DNA of 64,000 nt from Patescibacteria group bacterium (GCA_041645215.1 JBAZQK010000007.1:8976-72975); one strand, 5' to 3'. Numbered from the stretch's first letter, positions 27,463 to 60,222 are shown. Numbers and translations: made by a program. The notes: a model not told the origin generated them from the sequence alone.

Positions 27463-27637
27463 GAGATGGTTCCAAAACTCTTTCGTGGCGAAATTTCAGT
27501 TTTTCTTGCGAGACGAGGAAGGCGAGCAAAAAGAATTGAAACGTAGTAGAACTACGGTGAAATCCTTTTTGCGAAGCCTGACGAAGTCGCAGCCGAAAAG
27601 ATGAAATTACAGCAGAAATGAGTTTTGAAACCATCTC
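27463..27637 (+). mobile_element. Y-family MITE-like element copy Y1 (TIR gagatggttccaaaactc / gagttttgaaaccatctc)
   Basis: 175 bp. Its reverse complement recurs at 60048-60222. The central hairpin cgtagtagaactacggtgaa is shared with the X family. Confidence 0.75.
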
Positions 27638-27695
27638 TTAGTCTCGCTTTCATAATTCTCAATTCTTGCCCAGTATAACTACTTATGTTATAGTT

Positions 27696-27844
27696 CGCCC
27701 AGTACCAGAGTCCCGAAGGAGAACAAGTTCCCTACGGGGCAGGCAAGCACGGTACTCTCGCATCGCTCCAACGGTATATTCCTCATCGGCAGCGAGCGGC
27801 CAACAATCCCAATCTTTTGACTATTCTTGGTGCCCAGGGCTCGC
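27696..27844. repeat. Solo copy of the T-family middle unit
   Basis: About 147 nt, identical to 24354-24499 except for 2 C/T transitions. Confidence 0.8.
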
Positions 27845-27976
27845 TTTTAAAATAAAATTTATAAATGAGCTAAGCAACTTATTCAATCGTTATCTCTTAC
27901 TAACTACTTAATCTAAGCTCGCTAAATTTTATTTAACAAAGTTGTTATACTGGACTTGATTCATAATTATTAATTT

Positions 27977-28261
27977 ATGGCCCATACCAAAGCTGCCGGC
28001 TCTACCTCACTGGGCCGCGATTCCATAGCCAAACGTTTAGGCGTAAAACTTTTTGCCGGACAAAATGTTCGCGCCGGCATGGTAATTGTTCGCCAACGCG
28101 GCACTAAATTCTTTCCCGGCTCAGGCGTTAAAAAAGGCAGCGATGATACATTATTTGCCACTCAAGCCGGCACTCTTAAATTTTTTCGCAAGTGGCGTAA
28201 GAGCTTTAATGGCAAGCTTAAACTGGCTAAGATGGTTGCGGTTTTGCCACCAGAGGAATAG
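27977..28261 (+). CDS. rpmA: 50S ribosomal protein L27
   Basis: '[29 protein letters not shown]' is the canonical L27 sequence. Confidence 0.95.
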
Positions 28262-28262
28262 T

Positions 28263-28360
28263 TTATGAAGCCTCCACGGGCTTACGCCCGAGGTATCCTT
28301 CATTTTTTCGGCGAAATCCGCCGAAGTCCTCCCAAGGAGGACGAAGGCGGATAAAATTCA
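28263..28360. repeat. P-family palindromic repeat element
   Basis: Core gtcctcccaaggaggac at 28326-28342, flanked by atccgccgaag / cgaaggcggat. Confidence 0.6.
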
Positions 28361-28392
28361 AAAATCCGCTCCTATCCCAGAGCGGATTTTTT
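28361..28392. terminator. Bidirectional rho-independent terminator between convergent rpmA and pyrG
   Basis: aaaatccgctc ctatccca gagcggatttt with T/A runs on both sides. Confidence 0.7.
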
Positions 28393-28422
28393 GTAATTCC
28401 GGCAGTACAAGTGGAAATAGAA

Positions 28423-30078
28423 CTAACTGCCCTTCCCAATATCAACGCCGCTATTAAGCTGGGCTACGGCCGCGGCCATAAAATCGCGGAATAAAGGATG
28501 CGGACGCAAGGGTCGGGATTGAAATTCCGGATGAAACTGCACCCCCACAAACCACGGATGGTCGCGGAGCTCCACAATCTCTACCAGGTGACCGTCGGGC
28601 GAAGTGCCGGAAATAACCAAGCCGACTTTTTCCAAGCGGACGCGATAAGCGTTATTGAATTCATAACGGTGGCGGTGGCGTTCGGAAATCTCGCTTTTAC
28701 CATAAGCCTCATAAGCTTTGGTACCCTTAAGCAAACGGCAGTCCCAGGCCCCCAACCGCATCGTCGCGCCATAATCCTTAGCTAACATTTTCTTTTCTTG
28801 GTCCGGCATTATATGGATAACCGGGTGTTTGGTTTTAGGATCAATTTCCGTGGAATTAGCATCGGCCATATCAGCTAAATGACGGGCGATTTCCACGGTA
28901 GCCAGTTGCATACCATAACACAACCCCAAAAAAGGCATACTATTCTCGCGGGCATACTTAATAGCCGCCACGATTCCTTCCGTCCCCCGCCCGCCAAAGC
29001 CGCCGGGTACCACCAACCCCGCCATATTTTTTAAATATTTTTCCGCGCCGTCAGCTTCTATTTTTTCCGAATCAACCCAATGTAATTTTGGTTTAACTCC
29101 ATTGGCCCAGCCGGCGTATTTAAGCGACTCTATCACTGATACGTAAACATCTGACAAAACATAATCGCCAGTTGCAAAGTATTTGCCCACAATGGCAATC
29201 GACACTTCCGGTTTATCGGTTTTGACAACTTCAGCCAACTTTTGCCAATCATTTAAATCTTTACCCTTGGGCTTAAGGCGAAACTTTTTTAAGACTCTAT
29301 CGGCAAAGGCTTGCTCGTCAAATTTTAAAGCCACGTCATAAACCGATTCCAAATCAGGATTGGAAATAATATCATCGCTGTCCATATTACAAAACAAAGC
29401 TAACCGCTCCTTGCGTTTGCGGTCAAGCGGTTTCTCGGCGCGGGCCACCAAAAAATCCGGCTGAATACCCATACTATTCAACAATCGGACTGACATCTGC
29501 ACTGGTTTGGATTTCATTTCACCGACGGTCGGCGGCGTTGGCAAATAAGCCACATGTACCTGTAACACACTGTCTTTATCGCGTAATTTCATAATACGCG
29601 ATGATTCATAATAAAAAATATTTTGGTATTCCCCGGCGGTTCCACCCAGCTCGATTATAACAATATCAGCCCGCGATTTGCGACCGGCATTTTTAACGCG
29701 CCGAATAATTTCATCGCATAAATGCGGGATAGCTTCCACATCCTCACCTTCATAACCAAAAGCTCGCTCCTTGTCTATCACCGTCTTATAAACCTGCCCC
29801 ATCGTTATAAAATTGTCGCCGGACAGCGGCAAATCCAAAAATCTTTCATAAGTCCCGATATCTTGGTCGGTCTCAAGGCCGTCATCACAGACAAATACTT
29901 CTCCGTGCTCCGTCGGCCGGATCGTGCCAGCGTCCACATTCAAATAATTCTCACACTTAACCGGACACACCCGATAACCTTTGCTCTGCAATAATTTAGC
30001 TAACGACGCCGCCGCTATCCCCTTGCCAACGGACGACATTACGCCGCCGGAAATAAAAATGTACTTGATTTTCGCCAT
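28423..30078 (-). CDS. pyrG: CTP synthase. The track ORF uses GTG at 30114, inside a repeat; the likely start is 'MAKIKYIF' at 30078.
   Basis: 'KYIFISGGVMSSVGKG', a glutamine amidotransferase 'GLCYGMQ' and 'FHPEF' are present. Confidence 0.93.
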   Translation of the reverse strand: MAKIKYIFISGGVMSSVGKGIAAASLAKLLQSKGYRVCPVKCENYLNVDAGTIRPTEHGEVFVCDDGLETDQDIGTYERFLDLPLSGDNFITMGQVYKTVIDKERAFGYEGEDVEAIPHLCDEIIRRVKNAGRKSRADIVIIELGGTAGEYQNIFYYESSRIMKLRDKDSVLQVHVAYLPTPPTVGEMKSKPVQMSVRLLNSMGIQPDFLVARAEKPLDRKRKERLALFCNMDSDDIISNPDLESVYDVALKFDEQAFADRVLKKFRLKPKGKDLNDWQKLAEVVKTDKPEVSIAIVGKYFATGDYVLSDVYVSVIESLKYAGWANGVKPKLHWVDSEKIEADGAEKYLKNMAGLVVPGGFGGRGTEGIVAAIKYARENSMPFLGLCYGMQLATVEIARHLADMADANSTEIDPKTKHPVIHIMPDQEKKMLAKDYGATMRLGAWDCRLLKGTKAYEAYGKSEISERHRHRYEFNNAYRVRLEKVGLVISGTSPDGHLVEIVELRDHPWFVGVQFHPEFQSRPLRPHPLFRDFMAAAVAQLNSGVDIGKGS

Positions 30079-30220
30079 ACCCAGTATATCAACTTGGCTT
30101 AACCACCTCAGCACGAGCGTGGTTAGACAAGAATAAATGATTAAATGATTTTAGAAAAGACATAAAGTTATAATAGCTGGTGGTTAGGGCGAGTGCTAGC
30201 CAAGTTGTATTACTGGGCAT
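30079..30220 (+). mobile_element. W-family MITE-like element copy W1 (TIR acccagtatatcaacttggc / gccaagttgtattactgggcat)
   Basis: A 142-bp element that starts directly at the pyrG start codon. Its termini recur at 30221/30472, 47465/47610 and 24217-24242. Confidence 0.75.
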
Positions 30221-30472
30221 ACCCAGTATATCAACCCCGTAGAATCACGGCGGATACATCGATCAACCGTAATGTCCGGATTAATTGTAAGTAATTTGCG
30301 ATTTTCATAAATATTGATTGTCCGCCGTAACTCTACGGGGTCAACTTGGCTTAACCACCTCAGCACGAGCGTGGTTAGACAAGAATAAATGATTAAATGA
30401 TTTTAGAAAAGACATAAAGTTATAATAGCTGGTGGTTAGGGCGAGTGCTAGCCAAGTTGTATTACTGGGCAT
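30221..30472 (+). mobile_element. W-family copy W2, interrupted by nested element V
   Basis: Same termini and internal sequence as W1 (aaccacctcagcacgagcgtggttagacaag...). A 105-bp insertion lies after position 15. Confidence 0.75.
30236..30340. mobile_element. Nested 105-bp V element with TIR cccgtagaatcacggcgg / ccgccgtaactctacggg, flanked by the 5-bp direct repeat 'tcaac'
   Basis: W2 reads ...tatatcaac[V]tcaacttggc..., while the uninterrupted W1 reads tatatcaacttggc. That leaves a clean 5-bp target-site duplication. Confidence 0.7.
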
Positions 30473-30482
30473 AATAAAAAAA

Positions 30483-30929
30483 TCAACTGGCTTTAATATT
30501 TATCAATAAATTAACGGCTAGATCGCGATGCAACTGGATAGCAATAGTATGACGGCCGACGGTTTTTAAAGGCGCTGTTAATAAAATAGATTTTGGTTGC
30601 GCTTTAAATTGTTTTTTAGCCAGCGCGGCCGCGATATCGGCGCGAGTCACACTGGCATACAGCTTGCCCGAATCAGCCGCGCGGGCGTTTATTTCAATTT
30701 CCCCCATGCCTAACAGTACCGCCGCCGCCGACTGGGCTTGTTTTAAGCTATCAACCGCCAATTTAGCCGGCGTGGCGGCCTGGATTTTAATATTGGCAAG
30801 CGCTTTAGCTGTCGCCGGAATTGCCTCCCGACGCGGCAACAGATAGTTAATGGCATAACCATCACTAACTTCCTTAACCTCATTAGTATAGCCGTTACCC
30901 GGTATAGCCTTTAATAATATAACTTTCAT
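30483..30929 (-). CDS. rplI: 50S ribosomal protein L9
   Basis: 'MKVILLKAIPGNGYTNEVKEVSDGYAINYLLP' is typical of L9. Confidence 0.9.
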   Translation of the reverse strand: MKVILLKAIPGNGYTNEVKEVSDGYAINYLLPRREAIPATAKALANIKIQAATPAKLAVDSLKQAQSAAAVLLGMGEIEINARAADSGKLYASVTRADIAAALAKKQFKAQPKSILLTAPLKTVGRHTIAIQLHRDLAVNLLINIKAS

Positions 30930-31234
30930 AAAAACCAGCTGTTAGAATATCTTATTTTAAAATTTTTATCATACCTTAACGATTGCGCGGCGGCAGTAAC
31001 ACTTTTAACTATTGATAAACCAGGACTAGTTTTGAGCCAATCTATAAAATTATCCACTTGCCTCTGTTCACCCTCAATTTCCACGCTTAAACAATCGCGC
31101 GCCATTTCATTCTTTACCCACCCTACTAGTTGCAAAAGCTCAGCTTGCTTTTTTATTTGCCATCTTAAATCTACTCCCTGCACTTGTCCGTAGACTGTTA
31201 AACGCCGTCGTTGCTCGGGCATAACATTCGCCAT
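30926..31234 (-). CDS. acyP: Acylphosphatase
   Basis: 'VYGQVQGVDLRW' and 'GWVKN' signatures are present. Confidence 0.8.
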   Translation of the reverse strand: MANVMPEQRRRLTVYGQVQGVDLRWQIKKQAELLQLVGWVKNEMARDCLSVEIEGEQRQVDNFIDWLKTSPGLSIVKSVTAAAQSLRYDKNFKIRYSNSWFL

Positions 31235-31254
31235 TCATCAGCTAAATTATGATT

Positions 31255-32517
31255 TTATAAATTACTCAACAGCTCCAACGCCCGCTCCAACTGTTCGTCT
31301 TTAGGAGCGGTGCTATCGTCATTATTCTTGATTTCGATATCAGGTTTTAACCCATTTTTATCAATTGACCGACCCAGCGGCGTTAACCATTTAGCAATGG
31401 TCAGCTTGACCGCCGAACCATCAGGAAAATCCTGCAAATTCTGCACCGACCCCTTGCCAAAAGTTTGTTCGCCGACAATGGTGGCCAGTTTATAATCCTG
31501 CAAAGCGCCGGTAACAATTTCCGCGGCCGAGGCTGAACCGCGATTAACTAATACGACAGTGGGAATTTTACTTAGTTCACCCTGGCCGGCGCTATTGTAA
31601 TTGCGAATCTCATTTCCAGCCATTTGCTCCTTAACCACGACACCGTCTTTTACCCAGTGTCCGGCAATATCAATTGCCTGATCAAGAAATCCGCCCGGAT
31701 CGTTACGCAGGTCAAAAATTATCCCCCGCGGAGCTTTAGCGGCTAATTCCTGCCACGCCGCCGCAAACAATTTGTTGGCATTATTGGAAAAATGCGCCAG
31801 CTTGATATAAGCCGCCTGGCCTTGATTATTGGGTAAATTTTTAAGCTCACTCTGCACAATCTGTATTACAATTCTATCACGTACTATTTCCACAGTCTGG
31901 GGTTCAACTTTCCCTTCCGACAAAACCATTAATTTAACTTTGGTGCCGCGCTGACCGCGAATTAAACTGACCGCGTAATCTACCGCCATACCGGTCGTAT
32001 CAATATCGTCAATCCCTAATAACTTATCGCCAGCCTTTAACCCGGCGCGCTCAGCCGGAGTTTTAGGTAAGGGGGCAATTATAACCAATCGATTGTCTTT
32101 AATGCCGATTTCGGCGCCAATGCCGTCAAAACTGCCTTCCAACTCATCGGCAAATTTTTTAGCCGTGTCCGGATCCATAAAAATTGAGTACGGGTCATTT
32201 AGTCCGGACACCATTCCCCCCAACGAACCGTAGAATAACTTGGTATCACTAATCTGCCTTTCATAATAGTTATCATGCACATACTTCCATATCTTCCAAA
32301 ACAAGGAAAAATCAACATCCTTGCTTAAATATTCGGGCGCGGCTTGATTAAGGCCGGTGACTTTGCCGGCAATATTGACCAAACGACCGGTTTTAATCTG
32401 TCCGCCCAAGCCTAACCCCAAAATAAACGCCACCATAACAAAAACAACGACTAGTTTGATTGGTACTAGTCTTTTTACGGCTGACGCCAAATAACGCGAC
32501 CACGAATTCAAATTCAT
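31255..32517 (-). CDS. ctpA: Carboxyl-terminal processing protease (S41) with a PDZ domain
   Basis: N-terminal TM anchor, PDZ 'GLKAGDKLLGIDD', and S41 'VLVNRGSASAAEIVTGALQD' are present. Confidence 0.85.
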   Translation of the reverse strand: MNLNSWSRYLASAVKRLVPIKLVVVFVMVAFILGLGLGGQIKTGRLVNIAGKVTGLNQAAPEYLSKDVDFSLFWKIWKYVHDNYYERQISDTKLFYGSLGGMVSGLNDPYSIFMDPDTAKKFADELEGSFDGIGAEIGIKDNRLVIIAPLPKTPAERAGLKAGDKLLGIDDIDTTGMAVDYAVSLIRGQRGTKVKLMVLSEGKVEPQTVEIVRDRIVIQIVQSELKNLPNNQGQAAYIKLAHFSNNANKLFAAAWQELAAKAPRGIIFDLRNDPGGFLDQAIDIAGHWVKDGVVVKEQMAGNEIRNYNSAGQGELSKIPTVVLVNRGSASAAEIVTGALQDYKLATIVGEQTFGKGSVQNLQDFPDGSAVKLTIAKWLTPLGRSIDKNGLKPDIEIKNNDDSTAPKDEQLERALELLSNL

Positions 32518-32565
32518 ATTAAATTACTCTAGAAGTTTAACATGAGGCTGGGGGTAAGGTCAAAA

Positions 32566-33816
32566 CTAGATTCGTTTAATCCGTGCCCCGAGCGCGGCTA
32601 GGCGGCCATCCAAATTGGCATAGCCGCGATCAATAATTTCAACGTCATTAATAATTGTCTCGCCGGCCGCGATTAAACCGGCGATAATTAAAGTTGCCCC
32701 GGCTCGCAAATCAAACGACCTAATCTCGCGCCCATAGAGCGGAGTTGGTCCGTTTATCATTACGCGGTGCGGGTCGGCAATTAAGGTATTAGCTCCCATT
32801 TTGGCCAGTTCGGCAATATGATTCATACGACCCTCATACAACGGATCATGAATTAGCGAAGCGCCCATCGCTTGAGTGGCTAAGACCGCAAAGGGAGCTT
32901 GCAAATCAGTGGGAAATCCCGGATACGGCAGGGTTTGCAAACGAAATGATTTTAATTGCCGACTGGCGCGCACAATCATGGTTTGGCCTTTAATTTCCCA
33001 ATCAACCCCGATCTCTTTTAGTTTATATAAGACTAAGTCCATAGCCTCGGGTATAACCGGCCAAATTTCAATCTTCCCCCGCCCGACTGCCCCTAACACA
33101 GCCCAGGTTCCGGCCTCAATTAAATCAGGTATAATCTCATGAGTCGTCCCATGCAACTCACTAACGCCATCAATGCGCAAACGATGAGTGCCAATACCTT
33201 CAATTCGGGCGCCCATTTTATTCAAAAAATTGCATAGATCTTGAACATGCGGCTCGGCCGCGGCCAACTCAATAATCGTAGTGCCATGAGCCAACACCGC
33301 CGCCATAATCAAATTCTCGGTGGCGGTTACGGAAAATTCCGGCAATATAACATGCGCCCCGGTTAAGTGATTCGCCTTTAAATAGTAAGAGTCGCGCCTG
33401 GCCTCAACCATTGCCCCCAACTGGCTTAACCCCTGCAAATGAGCGGTCAGCGGCCGATTGCCAATTATGCATCCGCCCGGCTCCGGTAACTCAACCTCGC
33501 CCCAGCGAGCCAATAAAGGCCCGAACATCAAAACCGACGACCTCATGCTTTTAACCAAAGGTTTGTCCAAACCCTGTGGCTCAATCGTTTTAGCTTCAAT
33601 CCTAACCACATCCCCTTGTCGCTCAACTTTGGCGCCTAAACCCTTTATTAAATCCAACATTTTAGCGACATCAGAAATCGCCGGCACGCGTTTTAATTCA
33701 ACGGTATCGCGCGTCAGCAGGCAAGCTGCCAAAATGGGCGTCGTGGCGTTTTTGGCGCCCGGCACGGTAATTTGTCCTTGCAAAACCGCTCCGCCTTCTA
33801 TTAAAAATTTACCCAT
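32566..33816 (-). CDS. murA: UDP-N-acetylglucosamine 1-carboxyvinyltransferase. The track start is 33954; the likely start is 'MGKFLIEGG'.
   Basis: EPT family: 'LQGQITVPGAKN' and a 'C' in the active loop 'EPGGCIIGNRP'. Confidence 0.9.
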   Translation of the reverse strand: MGKFLIEGGAVLQGQITVPGAKNATTPILAACLLTRDTVELKRVPAISDVAKMLDLIKGLGAKVERQGDVVRIEAKTIEPQGLDKPLVKSMRSSVLMFGPLLARWGEVELPEPGGCIIGNRPLTAHLQGLSQLGAMVEARRDSYYLKANHLTGAHVILPEFSVTATENLIMAAVLAHGTTIIELAAAEPHVQDLCNFLNKMGARIEGIGTHRLRIDGVSELHGTTHEIIPDLIEAGTWAVLGAVGRGKIEIWPVIPEAMDLVLYKLKEIGVDWEIKGQTMIVRASRQLKSFRLQTLPYPGFPTDLQAPFAVLATQAMGASLIHDPLYEGRMNHIAELAKMGANTLIADPHRVMINGPTPLYGREIRSFDLRAGATLIIAGLIAAGETIINDVEIIDRGYANLDGRLAALGARIKRI

Positions 33817-34064
33817 GTTAATATATAATGAATGGAACCAACGGGTAACCCCGTGGTACATAGAGCTAATGATACGAGTGGGGCGACCTGTGAACCAGAA
33901 CAAGTTCAATTCACGGCCTGCATCCCGCAGTGGGCGGGATGCACCCTCATTCACCCGAAGAGTAAACCCTCCAGTACTCAGCGGCTTTATAGATTTTAAT
34001 CCAACCTTAACTTGTTAATTATAATTAAGGTCTTCATTATTGACAAGTGTAATAAATTTTTGTA

Positions 34065-35417: not shown

Positions 35418-36120
35418 CTTTCTTGGCCGCCAACAAATTGGCTCTGAGCAAAGAATCAAAGGTGCCGGCATCAATCCATTCGCCCTTAACTAAGTCAACG
35501 GCCAGCTCGCCGCGCTGTAAATACCAATTATGCAATTCCGTAATTTCAAGCTCGCCCCGAACTGATGGTTTGACTCCTTTGGCAATCTCCACTACCCGGT
35601 TGTCGTAAAGATACAAACCGGTGATTGCAAAATTGGATAAAAATTCCTTAGGCTTCTCCGCAATTTTAATCGCTTTCATATTAGCGTCAAATTTGACAAC
35701 TCCAAAACGCTCCGGATCGGGCACCTCTTTAGCAAAGATATGCGCCCCTGACTTAAAATCTTTAATCGTGTCAGAAAAATCATCTTCAAAAATATTATCA
35801 CCCAAAATCATACAAACATTGTCCTGGCCGATAAAGTGCTCGCCAATTATAAAAGCTTGCGCCAAACCTTCAGGTTTATCTTGAATCTCATAAGTAAACT
35901 TAGCAGCAAACTCTTTACCAGAACCTAAGAGATGCAAAAAATCGCCAGCGTGGTCTGGCGCCACAATAATTAGAATATCCCGAATATCAGCCTTTAATAA
36001 TGTTTCCAAGGGATACATTATCATCGGCTTATTATAAATGGGAAGGAGCTGCTTGCTGGTTACTCTGGTCAGCGGCCGCAAACGCGTAGCCTCGCCGCCG
36101 GCTAAAATTATGCCTTTCAT
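35398..36120 (-). CDS. rmlA: Glucose-1-phosphate thymidylyltransferase
   Basis: 'MKGIILAGGEATRLRPLTRVTSKQLLPIYNKPMIMYPL' is present. Confidence 0.82.
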   Translation of the reverse strand: MKGIILAGGEATRLRPLTRVTSKQLLPIYNKPMIMYPLETLLKADIRDILIIVAPDHAGDFLHLLGSGKEFAAKFTYEIQDKPEGLAQAFIIGEHFIGQDNVCMILGDNIFEDDFSDTIKDFKSGAHIFAKEVPDPERFGVVKFDANMKAIKIAEKPKEFLSNFAITGLYLYDNRVVEIAKGVKPSVRGELEITELHNWYLQRGELAVDLVKGEWIDAGTFDSLLRANLLAAKKATASSN

Positions 36121-46491: not shown

Positions 46492-46632
46492 AATAGAAAA
46501 TTTAAATATAAAAATTGGAATTTACCCCCGCCTTGGGCGGGGGCGGAAATGACACCAAACCCGTAAGTCCTAATTTACATTTTTATTCATACAAATTTAA
46601 TCCGGCCGCTATTCCCTTACCCTGCCTAAAGA

Positions 46633-47621: not shown

Positions 47622-47736
47622 CCTGCCCGACGCTAGCCTTACCCAATTAACCAATAGTTGTCCAATGACCTTATATATATTCATCGCTAGATTATGTTTA
47701 AGACTTTGGCTTTGGCAGGCGGGTCAAAATGGAAAA
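47622..47736 (+). repeat. Z-family repeat copy
   Basis: cctgcccgacgctagccttaccc...ctttggctttggcaggcggg. Confidence 0.55.
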
Positions 47737-49355: not shown

Positions 49356-51665
49356 TTGACTGCTGTCTTAATGGTCGCGGCCAAATCAGCAAAAAGTGCT
49401 ACAATAAATTATATGCCAACTACTTTATTAGCCAGCCTGCTCGGTTTAATACTAAGCCTAAACCTGTGGCTGGTGCATTCCCTTATTCTTGGCTTACTGG
49501 TCGGGTTCGCGTATTTATGGCTAACCGGCACACTCTGGAGCGAACGATTAAAACTAAATAGCTGGTTGGAAAAGTTTGTTATCGGTAGTATCAGTTTAAT
49601 GGCCGCTGTCATAATTATCAGCACCATTGGTTTTTATATTGGCCTATTTAATAAATACCTCATCGGCCTACTATTGGTAGCCTTACCTTTGGCTGGCCAA
49701 TTTAAACAAGTCAAATTTACCCTCCTCCGCAAGCGACAGCGAGCGGAGAATGATCAGCCTGTAAAAGCGGGAATGAATGAGGATATCCTCCGTAGCCTTG
49801 GCGAAGAAGGATATGCTGCGGAGGGTTCTGCCCGACGAAACATGGTGAGAGGTGCCACGAGCAGCCTACTCCGTCCTCCTAAGGAGGACGGAGTAGGCTG
49901 GGTAAGCCTGTGGAACTCAACTTTGGCCGCCGCCTTAGCCATTACCTGGCAAAAAATACTCACACTGACGCTCTTTATCATTTTAGCCGGCTTAACCAGT
50001 TACAGCCTTTACTATGTGTTAAGCAATGAAGCCCTGCGCACACCCTGGCAGGTTGTGTTGCCAATAACTTTCGCACTTTATGCCGGCGCCGTCGCCGCTT
50101 GGCTAATAGTCAGCCGCTATTTCAAAGCCGGCGGCCTAATATTACTTTATTTGATAAGTTCAAGTGTATTGCCGCTAGTCTACGCTTTGGGTTATGGCTT
50201 TGACCCGTTTATTCACCAAGCCACGGCTAAAATTTTAGCTAACACCGGCACCATTGACCCTAAACCCTTATATTACATTGGCCAGTACGTAATCGTGGTA
50301 ATAATCAACTGGGTCACGGCTCTGCCTATTAACCTCATAGATAAATGGCTGTTGCCGATTTTAACCAGTTTGATTCTGCCTGTGCTCACGGTACGAAAAC
50401 TAAAACAGACCGCCACGGATAATTATCTACTGGTACTGGCTGGAGCCTTGCCATTAATTTTTTTGCTCAGTCAATTCACTTACACCACCCCGCAGGGTTT
50501 AGCTAATTTATTAGCCTTAGTTCTAATTTTTACTTGGTTTAAAAATAATGACGGCGTTCACCTGCCTATTTGGTTTAGCTGGCTAGTGGCGCTAGCTGGC
50601 GTGGCCGTTCATCCCCTGACAGGACTGCCTCTGCTGGGATTAAATACCATTTGGCAAATATACCAAAGCAATCTTAAACTAAATATCAAAAAATGGCTGC
50701 TGGGTTTGGCGGCCACGGCCACGGCCTTAGTGGTACCGCTCGGATTCGCGGTGATGTCCTGGCTCAAACCGTCAGCCGCCAGTATTAAATTATCATTTGA
50801 CTGGTGGAATAGTTTGGCGCGCCTTGGTAGCAATCTGGCTGGAGCTTTGCCGATTTTACCGCCCTATACTGAAGTGGCTGACGTGGTTTATTTATGGGGC
50901 CGGCCGTTGGTTTTAATAATTGTGGCGTTAGCGGCTTGGGGCTGGTACCGCACTAGCAAATACCGCTTGGGCGCCGGATTTTTAATCACCAGCTTTGGCT
51001 TGCTGACTTTGAGTTATTTGCTTTTAAATTTATTTGCCAAATTTCCTAATCTGCCGACCAATGAGCAGAATTTTTATGCGGCGCGTTTATGGGAGTTGGC
51101 TTTGTTCACACTCTGGCCGTTGGCGCTCTATGGCGGATATCAAATTATCCATTATGTTTGGTACGAACGGCGCGCGCCTTATTTAGTGAGTGTAAGTTTA
51201 GTGTTAATATTAACAGCCTCATTTTACCTGACTTACCCCAGGCTGGATGTTTATCATCGCGATACCGGCTACAACACCACGCCCGATGATGTGCAAGCCG
51301 TAAAACTGATAAATAATGTTGGCGCCAATGGCAATTATGCCGTGCTCGCCAATCAGGCGGTCGCCGCCGCCGCCATCAAGACGTACAGTTTCAACAAATA
51401 CTTTGGACAAAATTTTTACTACCCCCTGCCGACCGGAACTAATCCATTGTACCAGGTCTATTTGAACGCGGCCGAGCGCGGATTGCCGACGCGTGCGACC
51501 ATTAAAACCGCGGCTGATATCACCGGCGCGCCGCAAATTTTTTTGGTTTTGAATAAATACTGGGCAAACTTTGACAAACTTACCGTCGTCGCCGACAGCG
51601 CCGCCAACCAAAAATGGCTGGTAGGCGACGGCCGTATTGCCATTTACCGCTACGATTTTAAATAA
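49356..51665 (+). CDS. Large polytopic membrane protein (possible GT-C-like or polymerase). The likely start is Met20 at 49413.
   Basis: About 14 TM segments. It contains an in-frame P-family repeat encoding a hydrophilic loop (49740-49905). Confidence 0.5.
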   Translation: MTAVLMVAAKSAKSATINYMPTTLLASLLGLILSLNLWLVHSLILGLLVGFAYLWLTGTLWSERLKLNSWLEKFVIGSISLMAAVIIISTIGFYIGLFNKYLIGLLLVALPLAGQFKQVKFTLLRKRQRAENDQPVKAGMNEDILRSLGEEGYAAEGSARRNMVRGATSSLLRPPKEDGVGWVSLWNSTLAAALAITWQKILTLTLFIILAGLTSYSLYYVLSNEALRTPWQVVLPITFALYAGAVAAWLIVSRYFKAGGLILLYLISSSVLPLVYALGYGFDPFIHQATAKILANTGTIDPKPLYYIGQYVIVVIINWVTALPINLIDKWLLPILTSLILPVLTVRKLKQTATDNYLLVLAGALPLIFLLSQFTYTTPQGLANLLALVLIFTWFKNNDGVHLPIWFSWLVALAGVAVHPLTGLPLLGLNTIWQIYQSNLKLNIKKWLLGLAATATALVVPLGFAVMSWLKPSAASIKLSFDWWNSLARLGSNLAGALPILPPYTEVADVVYLWGRPLVLIIVALAAWGWYRTSKYRLGAGFLITSFGLLTLSYLLLNLFAKFPNLPTNEQNFYAARLWELALFTLWPLALYGGYQIIHYVWYERRAPYLVSVSLVLILTASFYLTYPRLDVYHRDTGYNTTPDDVQAVKLINNVGANGNYAVLANQAVAAAAIKTYSFNKYFGQNFYYPLPTGTNPLYQVYLNAAERGLPTRATIKTAADITGAPQIFLVLNKYWANFDKLTVVADSAANQKWLVGDGRIAIYRYDFK
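49740..49905. repeat. P-family palindromic element inserted in-frame in a CDS
   Basis: The perfect 33-nt palindrome cctactccgtcctcctaaggaggacggagtagg lies at 49865-49897. It encodes '...RGATSSLLRPPKEDGVGW...'. Confidence 0.6.
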
Positions 51666-51667
51666 TT

Positions 51668-52220: not shown

Positions 52221-52351
52221 TAGGACTTACGCACTTGACCGTTTTTGGGTGTCATTCCCGTGCCAACGGGAATCCAGGCTGTGTAGAATGGCCATATTCT
52301 GGATCCCCGCATACGCGAGGATGACAGAAAGAGACCAAGTGCGTAAGTCCT
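52221..52351. mobile_element. X-family short copy X3 (TIR aggacttacgcacttg / caagtgcgtaagtcct)
   Basis: 131 bp. Perfect 16-nt TIRs with internal nested dyads. Confidence 0.65.
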
Positions 52352-52420
52352 AACTTTATTAAATACTTCAATACCATTTTCAAAAAACCACTTTCACCAG
52401 GCGGACGGATGAAGCTTAAG

Positions 52421-53713
52421 TCAAGAGCTCAATCGAGCTAACAAACTTGTAAGTTCGCGCGCGTAATCAGCCAAATTACTGGCTGAACTATTTTGTTTGG
52501 TATGACTGGCGGCGGCCGCCAATAAACTTGGGTTATCCAAACACCTATTAAGTTTTTGCGTAAACTCGGCCTCACTGCCGGGCGTGAACATCCAACCATT
52601 AACCCCCTCCTCCATAAGTTCCGGAATTCCGCCGCTTTGTGAGGCCAGCACCGGCGTACCCTGAACTTTAGCCATGGTAATAATGGTGGGCGCGTTTTCT
52701 AAACACAATGACGGTACGATTGCCAGGTGACTGTCGGCAATATAATTGTCAATTTCGGCTTGCGTGACAGTACGGTTAAGGGCAAAACGTTTATCGTCAC
52801 CAATCAAATTAACCAGCCGGGCCCAATTGTCCAGCGCGCCGACCGCTACAATTCGCAATGACCAATCACTCCGTGAACTTTTTTTAAGTGTTTGCACCAA
52901 CCAAAATATACCCTTATGCTCTTGAATCTGCCCGACGTATATCAAATTAACCAGACCCAGCGGCTTAAAGACCGATAGCGGGGCGGCCAGTGGCGGAACC
53001 GGATTGGGTATTACCTTAATTTCACTATTTTTAAAAAATCCCCGACTAATGTGTTCAGCCATCAGCCAACGCGATGGCGCCACCACAATATTTACCGGCT
53101 GGAATAACCAACGGGTAATAAACTGATAAACCTTAACGATTAAATTTTCATAACTCTCCTCAACCTGAAGCTTCCACGGGCTCATCCCGCCGTCTATGGT
53201 ATATTTCATTTCGGCGGCGCCCGTCCTCCGTCCTCCTTGGGAGGACGAGGGTGGATAAAATAAACCCGAGGGGTGTAGCAGTTGGACATCGTGCAAGGTG
53301 TGAAGATGTTTAAGCGACAGCGACTTAATGGCGCGCGGCAACCAAAACGACAAGCCCATCAAGTTAAAACTAATCACCGCCGCCGGCTTAACTTTTGCCA
53401 AAATTCGCCTGACCTGCCCCGCCGCCAGCCAATTAAACAAATTTATTTTATGCCAAACTAATCGCCACCCTAAACCATGGCGGGCGGCGTTAAGGTAATA
53501 ATAAACATTCAGCGGATAAAACCGATAAACCGCTATTTTATGCTCAATTCGGCAATCAGTTTTAAAACTACGCAAAGCCTGCCAGGGCGCGCTGGTAATA
53601 ACCGACACCTCATGTCCTTGATTAATCAATTCGACCGCTAACTGACTGGCGATGTATTCGGCGCCGCCGCGCCCGAACGGCGGATAAAGATTGGAAATTA
53701 TCGTGATTTTCAT
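52421..53713 (-). CDS. Glycosyltransferase family 4, with an in-frame repeat insertion
   Basis: GT4 C-terminal 'ASQSGGIPELMEEGVNG'. P-family core at 53230-53246 encodes 'PPSSSQGGRRTGAAE'. Confidence 0.82.
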   Translation of the reverse strand: MKITIISNLYPPFGRGGAEYIASQLAVELINQGHEVSVITSAPWQALRSFKTDCRIEHKIAVYRFYPLNVYYYLNAARHGLGWRLVWHKINLFNWLAAGQVRRILAKVKPAAVISFNLMGLSFWLPRAIKSLSLKHLHTLHDVQLLHPSGLFYPPSSSQGGRRTGAAEMKYTIDGGMSPWKLQVEESYENLIVKVYQFITRWLFQPVNIVVAPSRWLMAEHISRGFFKNSEIKVIPNPVPPLAAPLSVFKPLGLVNLIYVGQIQEHKGIFWLVQTLKKSSRSDWSLRIVAVGALDNWARLVNLIGDDKRFALNRTVTQAEIDNYIADSHLAIVPSLCLENAPTIITMAKVQGTPVLASQSGGIPELMEEGVNGWMFTPGSEAEFTQKLNRCLDNPSLLAAAASHTKQNSSASNLADYARELTSLLARLSS

Positions 53714-54834: not shown

Positions 54835-54838
54835 AATC

Positions 54839-55888
54839 TTACCATCTTATAATGGGAAAAATTATTCGCCAACCGCTGGCGCTTAGATAATTAAAAACTT
54901 TCATAAACAAACTTTCTTCTTGCCATTGTAGTTCACCGGCCGCCCAGCGCAGCAAATCGCGATCTTTAAGAGCCGTCAGCTTTTTTAAGGCTGAGCGTTT
55001 GTTAATTATATAGTTTCTGGCGGCGGGACGAAATAAATATTCCAGCGCTCTAATTTTGGCCCCCAGCCAACCGCCGCGCCCGGCCCCCAATATTATTGCC
55101 AACTCCGCCGCCGCGGCGGGCAAAAACAACAGCGCCAAAGTCGCGGGTTTAAAATAACTAAGCCACACCAAATAACGGTTGCGCTCCATAAAATACATTT
55201 GTGTCTTACTGCGCCGCGGCTCATAATAATGGGTAACCGCGGTTTGTCTGGTAATACCCAGTTTCCAACCGGCCGCGCGCAACCGCAAACTCAACTCCAA
55301 ATCTTCGTGATACATAAATAAATCTTCGTCAAATAAGCCCGTCTGGCGCAACGCCGCCGCGCGCAGTAAAACCGCGGCGCCGGAAAAATACGGCGGTTCC
55401 GGATTAGTGTTGTGGCCGTAAAATTTTTGCCAAGCCGCGTCTAAATCCTGCCCATTGCCCACAGCCTCGCCCAAACCCAAATAATGAAAGGAATTGCCAA
55501 TGCTGTTTACCAAACCGTTCGGCAGCAGTATAACCGGCTGGACCGCCGCCGCTTTGGAATTTTGTTGTAAATACTCAACTAATCCAGCTAAGGCGCCGGC
55601 GGTAAGTTCGGCGTCTTGATTTAACAAAAAAATATACTCGGCGCCGTCAGCCAGCGCGCGCTTAATGCCAATATTATTGCCGCGGGCAAAACCAAAATTT
55701 TCACCCTGACGGATTAACTTAACAGTCGGATATTCCAACTTTATAAGTTCCGCCGTATTATCACGGGAATTATTATCCACCGCGTAAACCGGCACGCCAG
55801 CGGCGTACTTAGCGCACGACCCTAAACTAACCGCCAACCAACGTTTGGCGTTATAGGTAACAACAACAATGGCGGTTTGGTTCAACAT
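54839..55888 (-). CDS. Glycosyltransferase family 2
   Basis: 'VVVTYN...DNNSRDNT' (DxD) and 'FLLNQDAEL' are present. Confidence 0.8.
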   Translation of the reverse strand: MLNQTAIVVVTYNAKRWLAVSLGSCAKYAAGVPVYAVDNNSRDNTAELIKLEYPTVKLIRQGENFGFARGNNIGIKRALADGAEYIFLLNQDAELTAGALAGLVEYLQQNSKAAAVQPVILLPNGLVNSIGNSFHYLGLGEAVGNGQDLDAAWQKFYGHNTNPEPPYFSGAAVLLRAAALRQTGLFDEDLFMYHEDLELSLRLRAAGWKLGITRQTAVTHYYEPRRSKTQMYFMERNRYLVWLSYFKPATLALLFLPAAAAELAIILGAGRGGWLGAKIRALEYLFRPAARNYIINKRSALKKLTALKDRDLLRWAAGELQWQEESLFMKVFNYLSASGWRIIFPIIRW

Positions 55889-56253
55889 TAATCCGGTGAA
55901 CTATTATTTTGTTCAGGCTTAGGCGGCTCCACCTTATTATCACCGGCTAAACCTCTAACCACAGCGGTTAAATCGCGCTCGAATTTTTCCAGCCGCACAT
56001 AAACTCGAAATATTAACCAGAAGGCCAAGACTAATCCAATATACAAAACTAAATCACTGCCCCGCCCCACGCCGGCCACGGCCGCCAAATAAGACGACAA
56101 ATCCGGGGCCGCCACAATCACGGCCGCCAACAGCCAAAAAGCCAACCAACTTACAAACTCCACCACCCCCAGTTCGCGCGCCTTGTATTTGTTCCACAGA
56201 CGCCAGCCAAATATTAAAATCATCAGTAATAAAATGTATTGTATTAGTGTCAT
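55888..56253 (-). CDS. Small membrane protein (DUF2304-like), partner of the GT2
   Basis: 3 TM segments, with a stop/start overlap to the neighbouring genes. Confidence 0.45.
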   Translation of the reverse strand: MTLIQYILLLMILIFGWRLWNKYKARELGVVEFVSWLAFWLLAAVIVAAPDLSSYLAAVAGVGRGSDLVLYIGLVLAFWLIFRVYVRLEKFERDLTAVVRGLAGDNKVEPPKPEQNNSSPD

Positions 56254-56258
56254 AGGCG

Positions 56259-56933
56259 TTATGATAAAAATTTACTCCAAAAAATATCTTTAACGATTTT
56301 TAGAGCCGGCCATTTGCCCTGCTGGCTGCGGCGACGACTGTATTCGGTATATTTAACTGTCACTGGCACTTCGCGGTAGCGTAAGTTATGCCGCGCCGTT
56401 TCGTCCATAATTTCGGAACTAAACGCCATCCGCGATTGGCGCAAGTTCATATCCTGCCAAGCCGCCCGACTAACGGCGCGAAAACCGTTATGGGCGTCAG
56501 TCAATTTCAAACCGGACATAAACCAAGTAAAATAAATCGCCAACTTAAGCGTAACATAGCGCAGAGCGCTGATGCCCTCCACCCGGCCTAAAAAGCGCGA
56601 ACCAAATACAATATCGGCTTCACCGGCGGCCACCGGCGCGATAACCGTGTTAAGCTCGTTCGCCGCAAATTGACCATCAGCGTCAAAGTGCACCGCTATA
56701 TCGGCTCCGCGCTTAAAGGCGCTATTCGTGCCGGTTATAAGGGCGGCGCCATAACCGCGGTTAATTAGGTGTTTGAGCACATAAGCGCCGGCGGCGGCGG
56801 CCGCAACGGACGTATCATCAGTTGAGCCATCATCAACCACTATCACCTCGCCCACGCGCGGCTTTACTTGCGCCACGACCCGGGCGATTGAGGCGGCCTC
56901 GTTGTAGGCCGGAATAACTGCGGTTATATTCAT
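56259..56933 (-). CDS. Glycosyltransferase family 2 (polyprenol-phosphate sugar synthase-like). The likely start is 'MNITAVIPAYNE'.
   Basis: 'VIPAYNEAASI' and 'VVDDGSTDDT' motifs are present. Confidence 0.85.
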   Translation of the reverse strand: MNITAVIPAYNEAASIARVVAQVKPRVGEVIVVDDGSTDDTSVAAAAAGAYVLKHLINRGYGAALITGTNSAFKRGADIAVHFDADGQFAANELNTVIAPVAAGEADIVFGSRFLGRVEGISALRYVTLKLAIYFTWFMSGLKLTDAHNGFRAVSRAAWQDMNLRQSRMAFSSEIMDETARHNLRYREVPVTVKYTEYSRRRSQQGKWPALKIVKDIFWSKFLS

Positions 56934-56937
56934 AACT

Positions 56938-57855
56938 TTACGAATGTGATTTATACCAGCGCAAAGTCTGGCGCAAGCCGTCAATAATCGGCACCGTGGC
57001 CTGCCATTTCAAATCACGCTGGGCTTTTTGGGGGGATAAACAACTGCGATTTATATCCTGCTCGCGGGCGGGAGCATACTCAATCAGCGGCACCTCACCA
57101 ATTACTTCGCCAATCCTAACTGCCAACTCACGAATTGAAATTTCGGTTCCGGTCGCGAGATTATACACGCCCCGTCCCTGTTGCAGGGCCAGCGCCATTC
57201 CTTGAGCCACATCGGTCACGTAAATAAAATCACGCGTTTGCTGGCCGGTGCCGTCAATCAAAATTGCTTTGCCTTGCAATAACTTATTACAAAAAATCGC
57301 CACCACCCCGCCCTCGCCCCCAGTTTTCTGCCGCGGTCCGTAAACATTGGCCGGGCGCGCCACGACATAGGGCACACCAAAATCACTGGCATAATAAGCT
57401 AAATATTTCTCAATCGTTAATTTAGACAGCGCGTAGGGCGACCCCGGTTTAAGCGTCGCCTCTTCGGCGGCGGGGGTTATATCAGGCGCGCCATAGACCG
57501 CGGCCGAGGAAACAAACAAAAATTTTTTTAAACCTATATTCTTAACCGCCTCCAGTACATTAAGCGTACCGACAATGTTTATGTCGGCATCGTGCGCCGC
57601 ATCGTCGCGCGAGGCCGGCGCGCTTGATTGCGCCGCCAAATGACAGACGTAAGAGGGCTTAAGCCGGCGCGCCAGTGAGCGCAAATTGCCGGAACGGATA
57701 TCAAGTTTATGAAACTTGGCCGCGGGGGCGACATATTTTTTTTTGCCGCTGGATAAATCGTCCACCACCGTAACTTGCAAACCAGCCCGCAACAAAGCTT
57801 CCACCAAATGCGAACCGATAAACCCGGCCCCGCCGGTTACTAAAACGTGTTCCAT
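56938..57855 (-). CDS. NAD-dependent epimerase/dehydratase (GalE-like)
   Basis: '[14 protein letters not shown]' and 'YALSK' are present. Confidence 0.85.
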   Translation of the reverse strand: MEHVLVTGGAGFIGSHLVEALLRAGLQVTVVDDLSSGKKKYVAPAAKFHKLDIRSGNLRSLARRLKPSYVCHLAAQSSAPASRDDAAHDADINIVGTLNVLEAVKNIGLKKFLFVSSAAVYGAPDITPAAEEATLKPGSPYALSKLTIEKYLAYYASDFGVPYVVARPANVYGPRQKTGGEGGVVAIFCNKLLQGKAILIDGTGQQTRDFIYVTDVAQGMALALQQGRGVYNLATGTEISIRELAVRIGEVIGEVPLIEYAPAREQDINRSCLSPQKAQRDLKWQATVPIIDGLRQTLRWYKSHS

Positions 57856-57865
57856 AAAATAATTA

Positions 57866-59017
57866 TTAAACCGGACGAGACAAATATTTTTTTAACACCG
57901 TCACTTTATCCAATTTTTCCCAAGCCGGACCCGGCCAGCCAAAATGGCCATAAGTGGCGGTCGCGCGATAAATCGGCCGACGTAATTTAAGCTGCTTAAT
58001 AATAGCCGACGGCGTCAGCGGAAAATGACGACGAATAATTTTAACCAGATTATCCGCGCTCAAAGAGCTGGTATTAAAAGTGTTGACCGCGATGGAAACC
58101 GGCGCAGGGCGCCCAATTACGTAAGCCAGCTGAATATCACACTCGCCCGCTAAACCGGCGGCCACAATATTCTTGGCTATATAACGGGCGGCATAAGCGC
58201 CGGAACGGTCCACCTTGGACGGATCTTTGCCGCTAAAACAACCACCGCCATGGCGCGCCCGGCCGCCATAAGTATCAACCATAATCTTGCGGCCCGTTAA
58301 ACCGGTATCAGCTTGCGGACCACCAATTATAAATCGGCCCGTACCATTAATAAACACCTTAGTGCGGGCATCAAACATTTTACCGCAGACCGGCTTAATC
58401 ACCTGCGCCAAAATATCGGCGCGCAACTTGGTTAAGCTGACAAGGCGGTCGTGCTGCGCCGCTATCACCACATTATTCAACCTGACCGGCTGACCATTGT
58501 GATATTCCACTGACACCTGCGTTTTGCCGTCGGGCCGCAGATACTTGAGCCGCTTAGTTTTTCTGACCTCGGCCAAGCGTTTGGCCAAACGGTGCGCCAA
58601 CATAATCGGCAACGGCATAAATTCCGCGGTTTCGCGGCAAGCATAGCCAAACATAATGCCCTGGTCGCCGGCGCCCAAAATTTGGCCGCGCCCGACGCCG
58701 CGCTTAATATCGGCGCTTTGCTCATGCAACGACACCAGCACGCCGGCAGCGGCCCAATCAATGCCGTACTCCGCCTTGGTATAACCAATCTCCCGCAAGA
58801 CTTGGCGCGCCACTTTTTGCACGTCCACAAAACCGGTGGTTGATACTTCCCCGCCCACCACCACAATGCCGGTTGTGATAAAAGTTTCAATCGCCACCCG
58901 CGCGTCCGGGTCCTGGCGCAATAATTCATCTAACAGCGCGTCCGATATTTGATCGCAAATTTTATCAGGATGACCCTCGGTAACTGATTCCGAAGTAAAT
59001 AAACTTATATCCTTCAT
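57866..59017 (-). CDS. metK: S-adenosylmethionine synthetase
   Basis: '[20 protein letters not shown]' and '[12 protein letters not shown]' are present. Confidence 0.95.
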
Positions 59018-59019
59018 AA

Positions 59020-60033
59020 TTAATTGTTGCCTACGCCCAACATATTCTTATGCGCCAAAAAATAATCAACTGTTTTCTTTAATCCAACCTCCAGCGGCAC
59101 CAGCGGGAACCAGCCCAAAACTTCCTTAGCTTTAGTAATATCCGGCAACCCCTGACGTGATAAATAAGGCAACGATCCAACTGATTCAATGCCTACCTGA
59201 GCCGCGGTTAATTTAATAATCATCTCCGCCACCGCCTGAATAGTTTTTTGGTCAAGCGCGCCCAAATTAAATATGCCGCCCTCGTCATACTCCATTAGCT
59301 TTATTAAACCGTCCACCATATCAGAGACATAACAATAAGTTGACACTTCCGCCGTTGAACCATAAACAACCAAGGGCTTGCCCGTCACAGCGTGCATAAC
59401 AAAATCGGGAATCATCCGGCCGTCATTTAGTTTCATGCGCGGACCGTAGGTATTGAAAATTCGGGCCAGGCGCACGCTCACCTCACGATGCTGGCCATAA
59501 TTAACCACCAGACTCTCGGCAAACCGCTTACCCTCATTGTAACAACTGCGCGGACCAACCGGGTCAATAAAACCCCAATAACTTTCGGGAATTGGTTGGT
59601 CGTCCGTCGGGTCGCCATAGATCGCCGACGACGAAGCGTGCAAAAATTTAGCCCGGTATTTAACGGCCATTTCCAGCAAATTATAGGTCGCCGCGGCGTT
59701 AGCCTGCAAAGTTTCAATCGGCAGATTGTTATATTCTTTGGGGCTGGTGGGACAAGCTAAATTATAAATTTCCTGAATTCCCTGAAACTTCACTTTAAAA
59801 ATTTCCAGCTCGGCAAACTTATCCAAATCCAATGGCGCCGTCAGGTCGTGCCGTAAAAATTTAAAATTCGGATGCTGTAGTAAAAGATCAATATTTTCCT
59901 CGCTGCCGGTTAAAAAATTGTCCACGCAAATTACATTAGCGGTTGGAATAAGCTGGTCGCACAAATGCGAACCAATAAATCCGGCTCCGCCCGCCACTAA
60001 CACGTTTTTTCGCTCCAATAATTGTTTGTACAT
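59020..60033 (-). CDS. UDP-glucuronate decarboxylase-like NAD-dependent epimerase/dehydratase. The track ORF uses TTG at 60060, inside repeat Y2.
   Basis: '[18 protein letters not shown]', 'YNEGKRFAE' and the UXS-like '[10 protein letters not shown]' are present. Confidence 0.8.
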
Positions 60034-60047
60034 AGTTATGTTACTCT

Positions 60048-60222
60048 GAGATGGTTTCAAAACTCATTTCTGCTGTAATTTCATCTTTTCGGCTGCGACT
60101 TCGTCAGGCTTCGCAAAAAGGATTTCACCGTAATTATACTACGTTTCAATTCTTTTTGCTCGCCTTCCTCGTCTCGCGAGAAAAACTGAAATTTCGCCAC
60201 GAAAGAGTTTTGGAACCATCTC
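60048..60222 (-). mobile_element. Y-family copy Y2 (inverted relative to Y1)
   Basis: Reverse complement of 27463-27637. Confidence 0.75.

Follow-up and report, generated by a model that had tools for sequence, protein, structure and literature searches.

Probably mobile hairpin elements with unrelated termini and a common folded core in a Patescibacteria genome

We report two families of short hairpin-forming repeats, here called X and Y, in a stretch of 64,000 nucleotides (the window) from a Patescibacteria group bacterium (GCA_041645215.1, JBAZQK010000007.1:8976-72975). Both are probably active, non-coding miniature inverted-repeat transposable elements (MITEs), which form near-perfect hairpins of 165–175 nt in a Kerfeldbacteria-like genome of the candidate phyla radiation (CPR). 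The elements are dispersed, polymorphic between strains, non-coding and bounded by terminal inverted repeats (TIRs), and they are flanked by target-site duplications (TSDs) of fixed length, namely 3 bp in Y and 5 bp in X. X and Y have unrelated ends and share one homologous folded core; the whole hairpin evolves by compensatory substitution, and only one of its strands tolerates purine-rich loops and wobbles of the G·U type, no matter how the host genes are oriented. MITE-like repeats with compensatory change at the RNA level are already known from bcr1 and ERIC (PMC3184786). What is new here is the host group, the activity shown in a natural population, and the recurrence of a single structured domain of ~85 nt across many unrelated terminus types.

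Insertions, alleles and target sites

The two Y copies in the window are 175-bp elements that are 97% identical to each other. Y1 (27463..27637) has its structured, or sense, strand on the + strand; its TIRs are GAGATGGTTCCAAAACTC and, as the reverse complement, GAGATGGTTTCAAAACTC, and it is flanked by the TSD TTA at 27460-27462 and 27638-27640. Y2 (60048..60222) is inverted relative to Y1, with its sense strand on the − strand, and is bracketed by AGA on that strand (TCT at 60045-60047 and 60223-60225 on the + strand). The 18-nt TIR (GAGATGGTTYCAAAACTC / GAGATGGTTNCAAAACT) has four matches in the window against 0.04 expected by chance, in agreement with the first-pass annotation, which had drawn both copies with these ends. 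Across 21 independent Y insertions, related loci included, 13 display a perfect 3-bp TSD. Read on the sense strand this is ATT in seven insertions and AAT in one, the remainder including AGT, TTA, AGA, TTT and ATA, and the bias suggests that the orientation of insertion is coupled to an asymmetric target.

Y prefers A/T-rich targets, directly after TATAAT-like hexamers: a perfect TATAAT abuts the element in six of 20 insertions (the flanks in loci L003, L008, L061, L073, L084 and L088), these insertions duplicate the last 3 nt of the hexamer, and in five of the six the hexamer lies upstream of the antisense strand. With up to one mismatch, TATAAT occurs at 10 of 40 Y boundaries as against 1.9% of background positions. 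The abutment and the 3-nt duplication together suggest that Y targets −10-like boxes with an orientation bias.

The X family is represented in the window by two full copies. X1 (18441..18605, + strand) is an element of ~165 bp with the termini (T)AGGACTTACGCG...CGCGTAAGTCCT(A), which starts 3 nt past the stop codon of a PilC-like gene; 18 nt separate its end from the ATG of a pseudopilin gene at 18624. X2 (26209..26371, − strand) lies between convergent genes. The two share 91% mean column identity over the aligned regions, including ~10 nt of flank on each side, and 97% identity over a 117-nt core. The X termini correspond to TAGGACTTACGCG, present at both ends. Outside TAGGAC...GTCCTA a perfect 5-bp direct repeat is seen in at least 11 of 20 X copies when the 40-nt flanks are read by eye (e.g., CTAAA, ATTAT, AATAT, TATTT, TCTTT, AAGTA, GGCTA, TTATG, AATCA and ATCAT). 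TA flanks X on both sides in 17 of the 20 copies, and we considered it as a TSD of the IS630/mariner kind. This was rejected: since TA belongs to the terminus and the duplication consists of the 5 bp beyond it, X is not a TA-duplicating element.

Allelic variation at the Y2 site, beside a conserved gene, records the movement of these elements. Among the assemblies compared there, the adjacent UXS-like protein is 100% identical, and the spacer between the GtrA and UXS genes exists in three states: the window allele, with Y2 between AGA repeats; the exact empty site of L098 (...aaacttAGAgtaac...; ...aaacttAGAgtaacataactATG), which bears out AGA as the duplicated sequence; and that of L096, which has no Y and in its place an X inserted 15 bp upstream. 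The X2 site is likewise variable, with a full-length copy in the window and in L100, and a 28-bp TIR–TIR palindrome in L099, L101 and L102. The window X2 lacks one base at each terminus, the two losses corresponding to each other (TAGGCTTACG / CGTAAGCCTA), and the remnant (L099 1870-1897) retains the canonical TAGGACTTACG; with canonical ends in the remnant and altered ends in the window copy, the two X2 alleles are not related by simple deletion. Contigs of other assemblies end at Y1 and at Y2, and the elements, which span 163–177 bp, have no conserved open frame. The TSDs, the many copies elsewhere, the exact empty site of Y2 and the alternative insertions beside an identical flanking protein thus uphold the earlier proposal of a non-autonomous transposable element family. 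Hairpin elements are thus seen to move within a natural population, and they land in spacers of essential operons (ribosomal spc, ftsA-ftsZ and the type IV pilus genes). They also affect the annotation of metagenome-assembled genomes (MAGs), in that they break assemblies and produce false N-terminal extensions.

The termini and the interior behave as separable modules, as both the termini with foreign interiors and the presence of the central domain within many termini attest. X-type or Y-type termini enclose unrelated interiors in the window at 52221-52352 and at L012 3516-3685, L002 51-239 and L048 9745-9885. The first of these (52221..52352, no strand assigned) had been listed by the first-pass annotation as a third X copy: this 132-bp element has X termini (TAGGACTTACGCACTTG) and a different interior, an ATTCCC-N8-GGGAAT hairpin, in which the covariance model of the central domain (R1, see below) finds no match. 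The solo X right termini that it had also listed are real remnants, at 7620..7636 (+, CAAACCCGTAAGTCCTG) and 46556..46572 (+, CAAACCCGTAAGTCCTA); neither has a partner TIR, and the latter follows ...ATGACAC, like the X-terminus elements that enclose other interiors.

Some further sequences keep company with the X and Y ends. A motif, gttaaccacgcNNcacaatgggtgcYtggcact, is found near X termini at two unrelated places (window 7484-7515, and L048 beside the X at 4515-4680). In L096 (1950-2150; assembly ERZ27247322) an element of ~214 bp with X-like termini (GGCTTACGCG...CGCGTAGGC) lies between the stop of the UXS-like gene and the start of MetK, which are 2 nt apart in the window (the insertion site corresponds to window 59017-59020); it is bracketed by a 19-nt repeat, gcgtaggcaacaattaatt, itself similar to the terminus of the element. 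A mini-element of ~66 bp, with termini CCCCGTTAGAAAG...CTTTCTAACGGGG and the 5-bp duplication CAAGC, is nested in X and Y copies (L096 724-789, within the X of the GtrA–UXS spacer; L080; L073). The window has no real copy of it, the lone match with two mismatches being at chance level.

The shared domain and its strand-specific fold

The likeness between X and Y, described in the first-pass annotation as a common central hairpin, extends over a homologous domain of ~85 nt, of which that 20-nt hairpin is the apex. The 20-mer CGTAGTARAACTACGGTGAA does occur in all four X and Y copies of the window (with 0, 1, 0 and 2 mismatches; 0.01 expected by chance). R1, a covariance model made from an alignment of 31 diverse centres, matches the window exactly four times: at 27509..27593 in Y1 (+, 87 bits), 60092..60176 in Y2 (−, 81.6 bits, with G>T and C>T changes in the apical stem), 18461..18544 in X1 (+, 85.6 bits) and 26268..26351 in X2 (−, 86.7 bits). 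The same scan reveals no further diverged copy in the window, where the next score is 11.6 bits, and gives 70 matches in 387 kb of related loci. Read 5′ to 3′, the domain comprises P1, CGAGG, P2, GAG(C), P3, GAG-N and an apical stem-loop of 6–7 bp, followed by (G/A)UGA(A/G), P3′, CG(G/A)AG, P2′, (A/G)ACGAAG and P1′; its three internal loops are rich in purines (5′ CGAGG / 3′ ACGAAG; GAG / CGRAG; GAG / GUGA).

The proposal of a superfamily with a conserved center was therefore sound and too narrow: the domain is present inside at least eight terminus types, namely X, Y and at least six more from groundwater and sediment CPR sequences. In most retrieved loci the core caps a long hairpin, and the ends of these hairpins are diverse: Y-type with its variants, X-type, CCGTAAATAAATAACTT, CGCAATTTTCATGG, GAAAGTTGGAGAAGCG and several more. 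In members found through their termini the apical stem shows compensatory swaps (CGCAGT/ACTGCG, CGTAAT/ATTACG and CGTAGC/GCTACG), and in some X copies it has been wholly exchanged for CCCGCC/GGCGGG, with the flanking GAG and UGA retained.

The predicted fold of Y is one hairpin and that of X a hairpin with a second GC-rich arm, at Z-scores of −5 to −9.5. Covariation, for which the first-pass annotation had suggested looking, is strong. In 17 copies of Y both sides have changed in 35 of the 64 predicted pairs; 97% of the cells are paired, as against 88% in shuffles (none of 500 as high), and the figure falls to 37–49% when the partners are slid by 1–3 columns. Among 20 copies of X, 31 of 55 pairs are compensatory, and in the cross-family consensus of the 31 centres 16 of 21 pairs have changed on both sides.

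The fold also has a polarity. The sense strand, which carries CGTAGTA...GGTGA, gives the better fold in 42 of 45 elements, with a mean difference of −13.3 kcal/mol between the strands (Wilcoxon p = 9e-9). G·T cells exceed A·C cells by 47 to 14 in Y (p = 3e-5) and by 55 to 5 in X, three copies of a Z type (CCGTAAAT-type) have 29 G·U pairs in the sense fold as against two in the antisense one, and purines make up 80% of the unpaired residues. Because this one-strand tolerance of wobbles is independent of gene orientation, selection would seem to act on a form that is single-stranded, has a fixed polarity and is intrinsic to the element. That form is most likely RNA, as in ERIC and bcr1, and less likely a single-stranded DNA intermediate.

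A more tentative idea is that the ~85-nt domain is an undescribed mobile module, a structured RNA (or single strand) with three GA-rich internal loops and a conserved hairpin at its apex, which many unrelated TIR shells have captured across the CPR or within which it spreads. In that case it may serve as a functional "cargo" or as a cis-acting mobility domain, with selection confined to one strand in any host context. The elements would then be vehicles for a structured RNA with a function of its own, rather than ordinary MITEs filled with stuffer. Candidate functions would be a protein-binding or processing signal that makes insertion tolerable in ribosomal-protein and ftsA-ftsZ operons, or a recognition element for single-strand mobility. 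The domain and its one-strand wobbles offer a test case for the question of whether some bacterial MITEs are kept or spread for the RNA that they encode, and not only for their ends.

We also compared the elements with known structured RNAs. The window has no Rfam match at the gathering threshold. A hammerhead ribozyme, brought to mind by CUGACGA...GAAA in Y, was rejected as a chance-level resemblance (Hammerhead_II, the best permissive match, reached 15.8 bits where 37 are needed, E = 0.89). So was domain V of group II introns (GAGCCGUA...UACGGU), the hairpin being 23 nt rather than 34 and Intron_gpII giving no match even at E <= 10. By manual inspection, a K-turn in the CGAAGAA loop would clash in register with the flanking helix.

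Mechanism and competing explanations

Transposases supplied in trans would be expected to recognise the X and Y termini, because the same termini also enclose unrelated interiors. For X, the mobilising enzyme might be linked to the IS701 group: the TIR of ISPlag1, an insertion sequence of this group from Planktothrix (CAGGACTTACGCAAGCACGC), has AGGACTTACGCA in common with X-type termini (TAGGACTTACGCACTTG at 52221), and short TIR-only remnants are seen in both, of 197 bp in ISPlag1 (PMC2464740) and as the 28-bp palindrome of L099 in X. ISPlag1 differs in being a 1,306-bp autonomous cyanobacterial element with a 337-aa transposase, and its similarity to X ends after ~13 nt.

Several observations weigh against our account of X and Y as mobile MITEs shaped by one-strand selection. 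A search of the window and ~450 kb of related loci turned up no autonomous insertion sequence and no transposase with matching termini, and it likewise yielded no inverted terminus pairs 0.7–3 kb apart and no multicopy open reading frames (ORFs); a scan of ~20 window ORFs against Pfam gave no transposase. With none found, mobilisation in trans is something that we only infer. The IS701 link of X consists of a 12–13-nt match to the published ISPlag1 TIR, beyond which the sequences differ, and of the length of the duplication: TSDs of the IS701 family are usually 4–5 bp, and the 5 bp of X fall in this range. Many X copies are nearly identical, so the G·T counts of X are not independent. The energy asymmetry between the strands derives in part from the purine-rich loops, which the energy model favours, and in most of the loci retrieved the 20-mer is conserved because the core search pattern itself demands it. 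The window Y copies are nearly symmetric (−71.4 vs −70.6 kcal/mol) and fold more poorly than most of their relatives, which fits decay; these copies may be degenerating. Scans of the element sequences gave no convincing internal promoter, and nothing consistent for internal sigma-70 promoters or intrinsic terminators. Finally, transposition as double-stranded DNA leaves, by itself, the strand-specific structural selection unexplained.

The last point is where the best-placed alternative has its strength. In this alternative X and Y move through a single-stranded intermediate of fixed polarity, either a reverse-transcribed hairpin RNA or a folded DNA strand handled by an HUH- or tyrosine-type enzyme; the "TIRs" would then simply be the helix at the base of the folded strand, and the mobility enzyme would recognise the central domain. 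Selection on structure that is strong, strand-specific and independent of host gene orientation would follow naturally, as would the retention of the domain across at least eight unrelated terminus types and the ATT bias of the Y TSDs. We regard it as improbable, and it is the fruitless search for a transposase that keeps its probability from falling lower. DDE transposition, by cut-and-paste or copy-paste, typically gives TSDs of fixed length and sharp, conserved termini, and identical termini around unrelated interiors point the same way, whereas IS200/IS605 elements and integron cassettes have, to our knowledge, no TSDs. Moreover, the sense strands in the source genome fall on both replication strands (four on +, two on −), and no reverse transcriptase or HUH gene is seen near any copy.

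Integron attC sites and the IS200-IS605-derived PATEs do resemble X and Y in that structure is more conserved than sequence and the fold is strand-specific, but they lack true TIRs and TSDs, whereas X and Y have true TIRs and TSDs of variable sequence. PATEs are also inserted beside a fixed target of 4–5 nt. The X and Y termini (GAGATGG... and TAGGACTT...) have no GTTRRRY-type core of the R′/R″ sites by inspection, no pattern search having been made, and no integrase goes with them. Whereas attC arrays, with R″/R′ core sites of the form RYYYAAC / GTTRRRY, adjoin intI with cassette ORFs, the copies of X and Y are scattered among housekeeping genes. The locus L072 has the attC-like trait of several copies in one orientation between short genes; an integron-like array was nonetheless rejected there, the genes between the copies being those of ribosomal proteins and not cassettes.

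Returning to X and Y as MITEs, we also weighed whether they might instead be host cis-regulatory modules, structured 5′-UTR RNAs or portable promoters, kept for the control of downstream genes. The first-pass annotation had allowed for such a module at gene 5′ ends. Y1, Y2 and X1 lie 59, 14 and 18 nt upstream of start codons: Y1 precedes a C39-like peptidase gene (26627..27403, − strand, real start ATG 27403), and Y2 precedes a UXS-like epimerase/dehydratase gene (59020..60033, − strand, real start ATG 60033). In the sense direction, Y1 and Y2 are each closely preceded by promoter-like hexamers, and both the insertion of Y beside TATAAT-like hexamers and the selected fold would suit such a role; these last two features are what survives of the proposal. 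We nevertheless consider it unlikely. Y1 and Y2 have opposite orientations relative to their downstream genes, and over 44 independent insertions the domain is sense in 10 and antisense in 15 co-directional contexts, with nine divergent and three convergent contexts (X2 being itself between convergent genes) and 47 neighbouring 5′ gene ends as against 34 3′ ends. In L072 (1268-6104; ERZ761599 NODE-6) five domain elements with differing termini have inserted, all antisense to the genes, into successive intergenic gaps of the ribosomal spc operon (L5/S8, S8/L6, L6/L18, L18/S5 and after SecY), and ftsA and ftsZ are separated by a Y copy in L008. Strains with identical proteins have no element, or a different one, in the same spacer, and Rfam offers no match.

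It is very doubtful, too, that Y is a short peptide module for in-frame fusion to host proteins, in the manner of the Rickettsia palindromic elements. Y1 and Y2 do have a frame that stays open over 58 codons, and in Y1 this frame enters the C39-like gene, as the first-pass annotation had noted: the ORF continues through Y1 to 27634 and would encode 335 aa rather than the 258 aa from ATG 27403, a 77-codon extension that a public gene call in L099 reproduces. For Y2 the corresponding claim was half right. The UXS-like ORF as listed does start at a TTG 13 nt inside Y2, nine codons upstream of ATG 60033, but the open frame of Y2 is directed away from this gene, with no read-through, and the gene calls of three other assemblies give an identical protein of 337 aa. 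Since the Y frame is closed in 13 of 19 copies (open in 6), the Y1 fusion is an annotation artefact, a by-product of insertion into a short spacer. X frames are nearly always closed, every copy is intergenic, the substitutions track base-pairing and not codons, and the protein databases hold just four matches to the Y frame, all of them short hypothetical ORFs. Least credible of all, and in effect refuted, is a local segmental duplication, the fallback of the first-pass annotation, or chance conservation, for which it may be said that each full element occurs only twice in the window, and against which stand copies that end exactly at their TIRs with unrelated flanks and TSDs, dozens of copies in other genomes and metagenomes, and the empty-site alleles.

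Comparable elements, host range and other repeats

Like X and Y, bcr1 of the Bacillus cereus group (~155 bp, mobile and transcribed) is a small, non-coding, dispersed intergenic repeat, with 5-bp direct repeats at its flanks as in X, a distribution that varies between close strains and compensatory changes that keep the fold at the RNA level (PMC3184786). It belongs to another phylum and has no sequence relationship to X or Y, which are single long hairpins with sharp TIRs; a core shared by families with unrelated termini is a feature of X and Y that is not described for bcr1. ERIC, or IRU, elements are likewise imperfect palindromes of ~127 bp with TIRs, located in intergenic regions that are transcribed; as RNA they influence the stability of mRNA, and variants with internal deletions and insertions exist (PMC3184786). 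They differ in having TA flanks, as against the 3-bp (Y) and 5-bp (X) TSDs, in showing no sequence similarity, and in being one family, whereas the core of X and Y is common to several terminus types. Palindrome-induced deletion is a further process known in the ERIC context. Other bacterial MITEs, such as Correia/NEMIS, RUP and Nezha, share with X and Y a size of 100–250 bp, TIRs, TSDs, an intergenic location and long hairpins when transcribed, and their occasional fusion to neighbouring ORFs, artefactual or real, recalls Y1. Their interior is family-specific, in contrast to the ~85-nt interior of X and Y that recurs across unrelated termini and tolerates wobbles on one strand.

The source genome is, judging by its genes, a Kerfeldbacteria-like member of the Patescibacteria (CPR), a group with small, streamlined genomes. 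The window codes for PilB/PilC, a pseudopilin, Mur ligases, L27, CTP synthase, MetK, AdoHcy hydrolase and glycosyltransferases, and the closest named relatives of its MetK are from Candidatus Kerfeldbacteria (77% and 74% identity), with other Patescibacteria coming next. A cyanobacterial origin, hinted at by composition and by the ISPlag1-like terminus, was rejected: a genome scan returned no cyanobacteria, and gene content and MetK are Kerfeldbacteria-like. A full-text literature search returned no paper describing MITEs in CPR/Patescibacteria.

Further copies, which the first-pass annotation had proposed to seek, are plentiful: the core-pattern scan gave 12 genome loci and 46 metagenome loci, a few of which (L051, L060 and L070/L087) are chance matches. 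L061 (Ga0265292) overlaps positions 1-2631 of the window at 99.8% identity and runs 12 kb further, with one more Y and one more X. The loci include CPR MAGs labelled Kerfeld-, Portnoy-, Gottesman- and Saccharibacteria. Among viral sequences the core had no match and the TIR 32 single matches, about the chance level by our estimate, which was not computed; plasmid sequences gave no element match.

Y copies and one element with X-type termini are also found in two MAGs labelled "uncultured Gammaproteobacteria" (L001, L002, L006, L010 and L012 in CAZVCF01, 38–40% GC; L008 in CAYHQU01, 47% GC). Their housekeeping proteins score below the NCBIfam equivalog cut-offs (MetRS 579 vs 587; SMC 545 vs 567), and the label is not confirmed. 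Spread of the elements across phyla is accordingly possible but unproven. Near-identical copies across all these labelled lineages could serve as markers of recent DNA exchange in groundwater.

The window holds other repeats besides X and Y. Between Y1 and the gene for L27, at 27683-27907, the window has a 225-bp insertion that L099 lacks, although this contig matches otherwise. A 7-bp direct repeat, TAACTAC, flanks the insertion, which contains a 169-nt unit that is 94% identical to 24337-24505. Related units are found at 24214-24740 and 30068-30490, with partial copies and inverted matches of 35–41 nt linking 24214-24741 to 30068-30473. The insertion has no Rfam match and its fold is not unusual (z = −1). 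Probably this is a mobile or duplicated unit of a third kind, unrelated to X and Y. At 60826-61434, 153-nt tandem repeats within a gene for a 770-aa subtilase are coding FG-GAP repeats and not mobile DNA. A GC-rich 47-nt palindrome (...TCCTCCGTCCTCC-CAAGG-GGAGGACGGAGGA...), REP-like or terminator-like, occurs in four copies (15311-15357, 28306-28352, 49853-49899 and 53210-53256), the second of them between the convergent L27 and CTP synthase genes. Lastly, a repeat unit of ~50–85 nt that ends in GCTTTGGCAGGCGGGT has at least four copies, at 9800-9871, 10038-10109, 47678-47724 and, inverted, 1705-1789.

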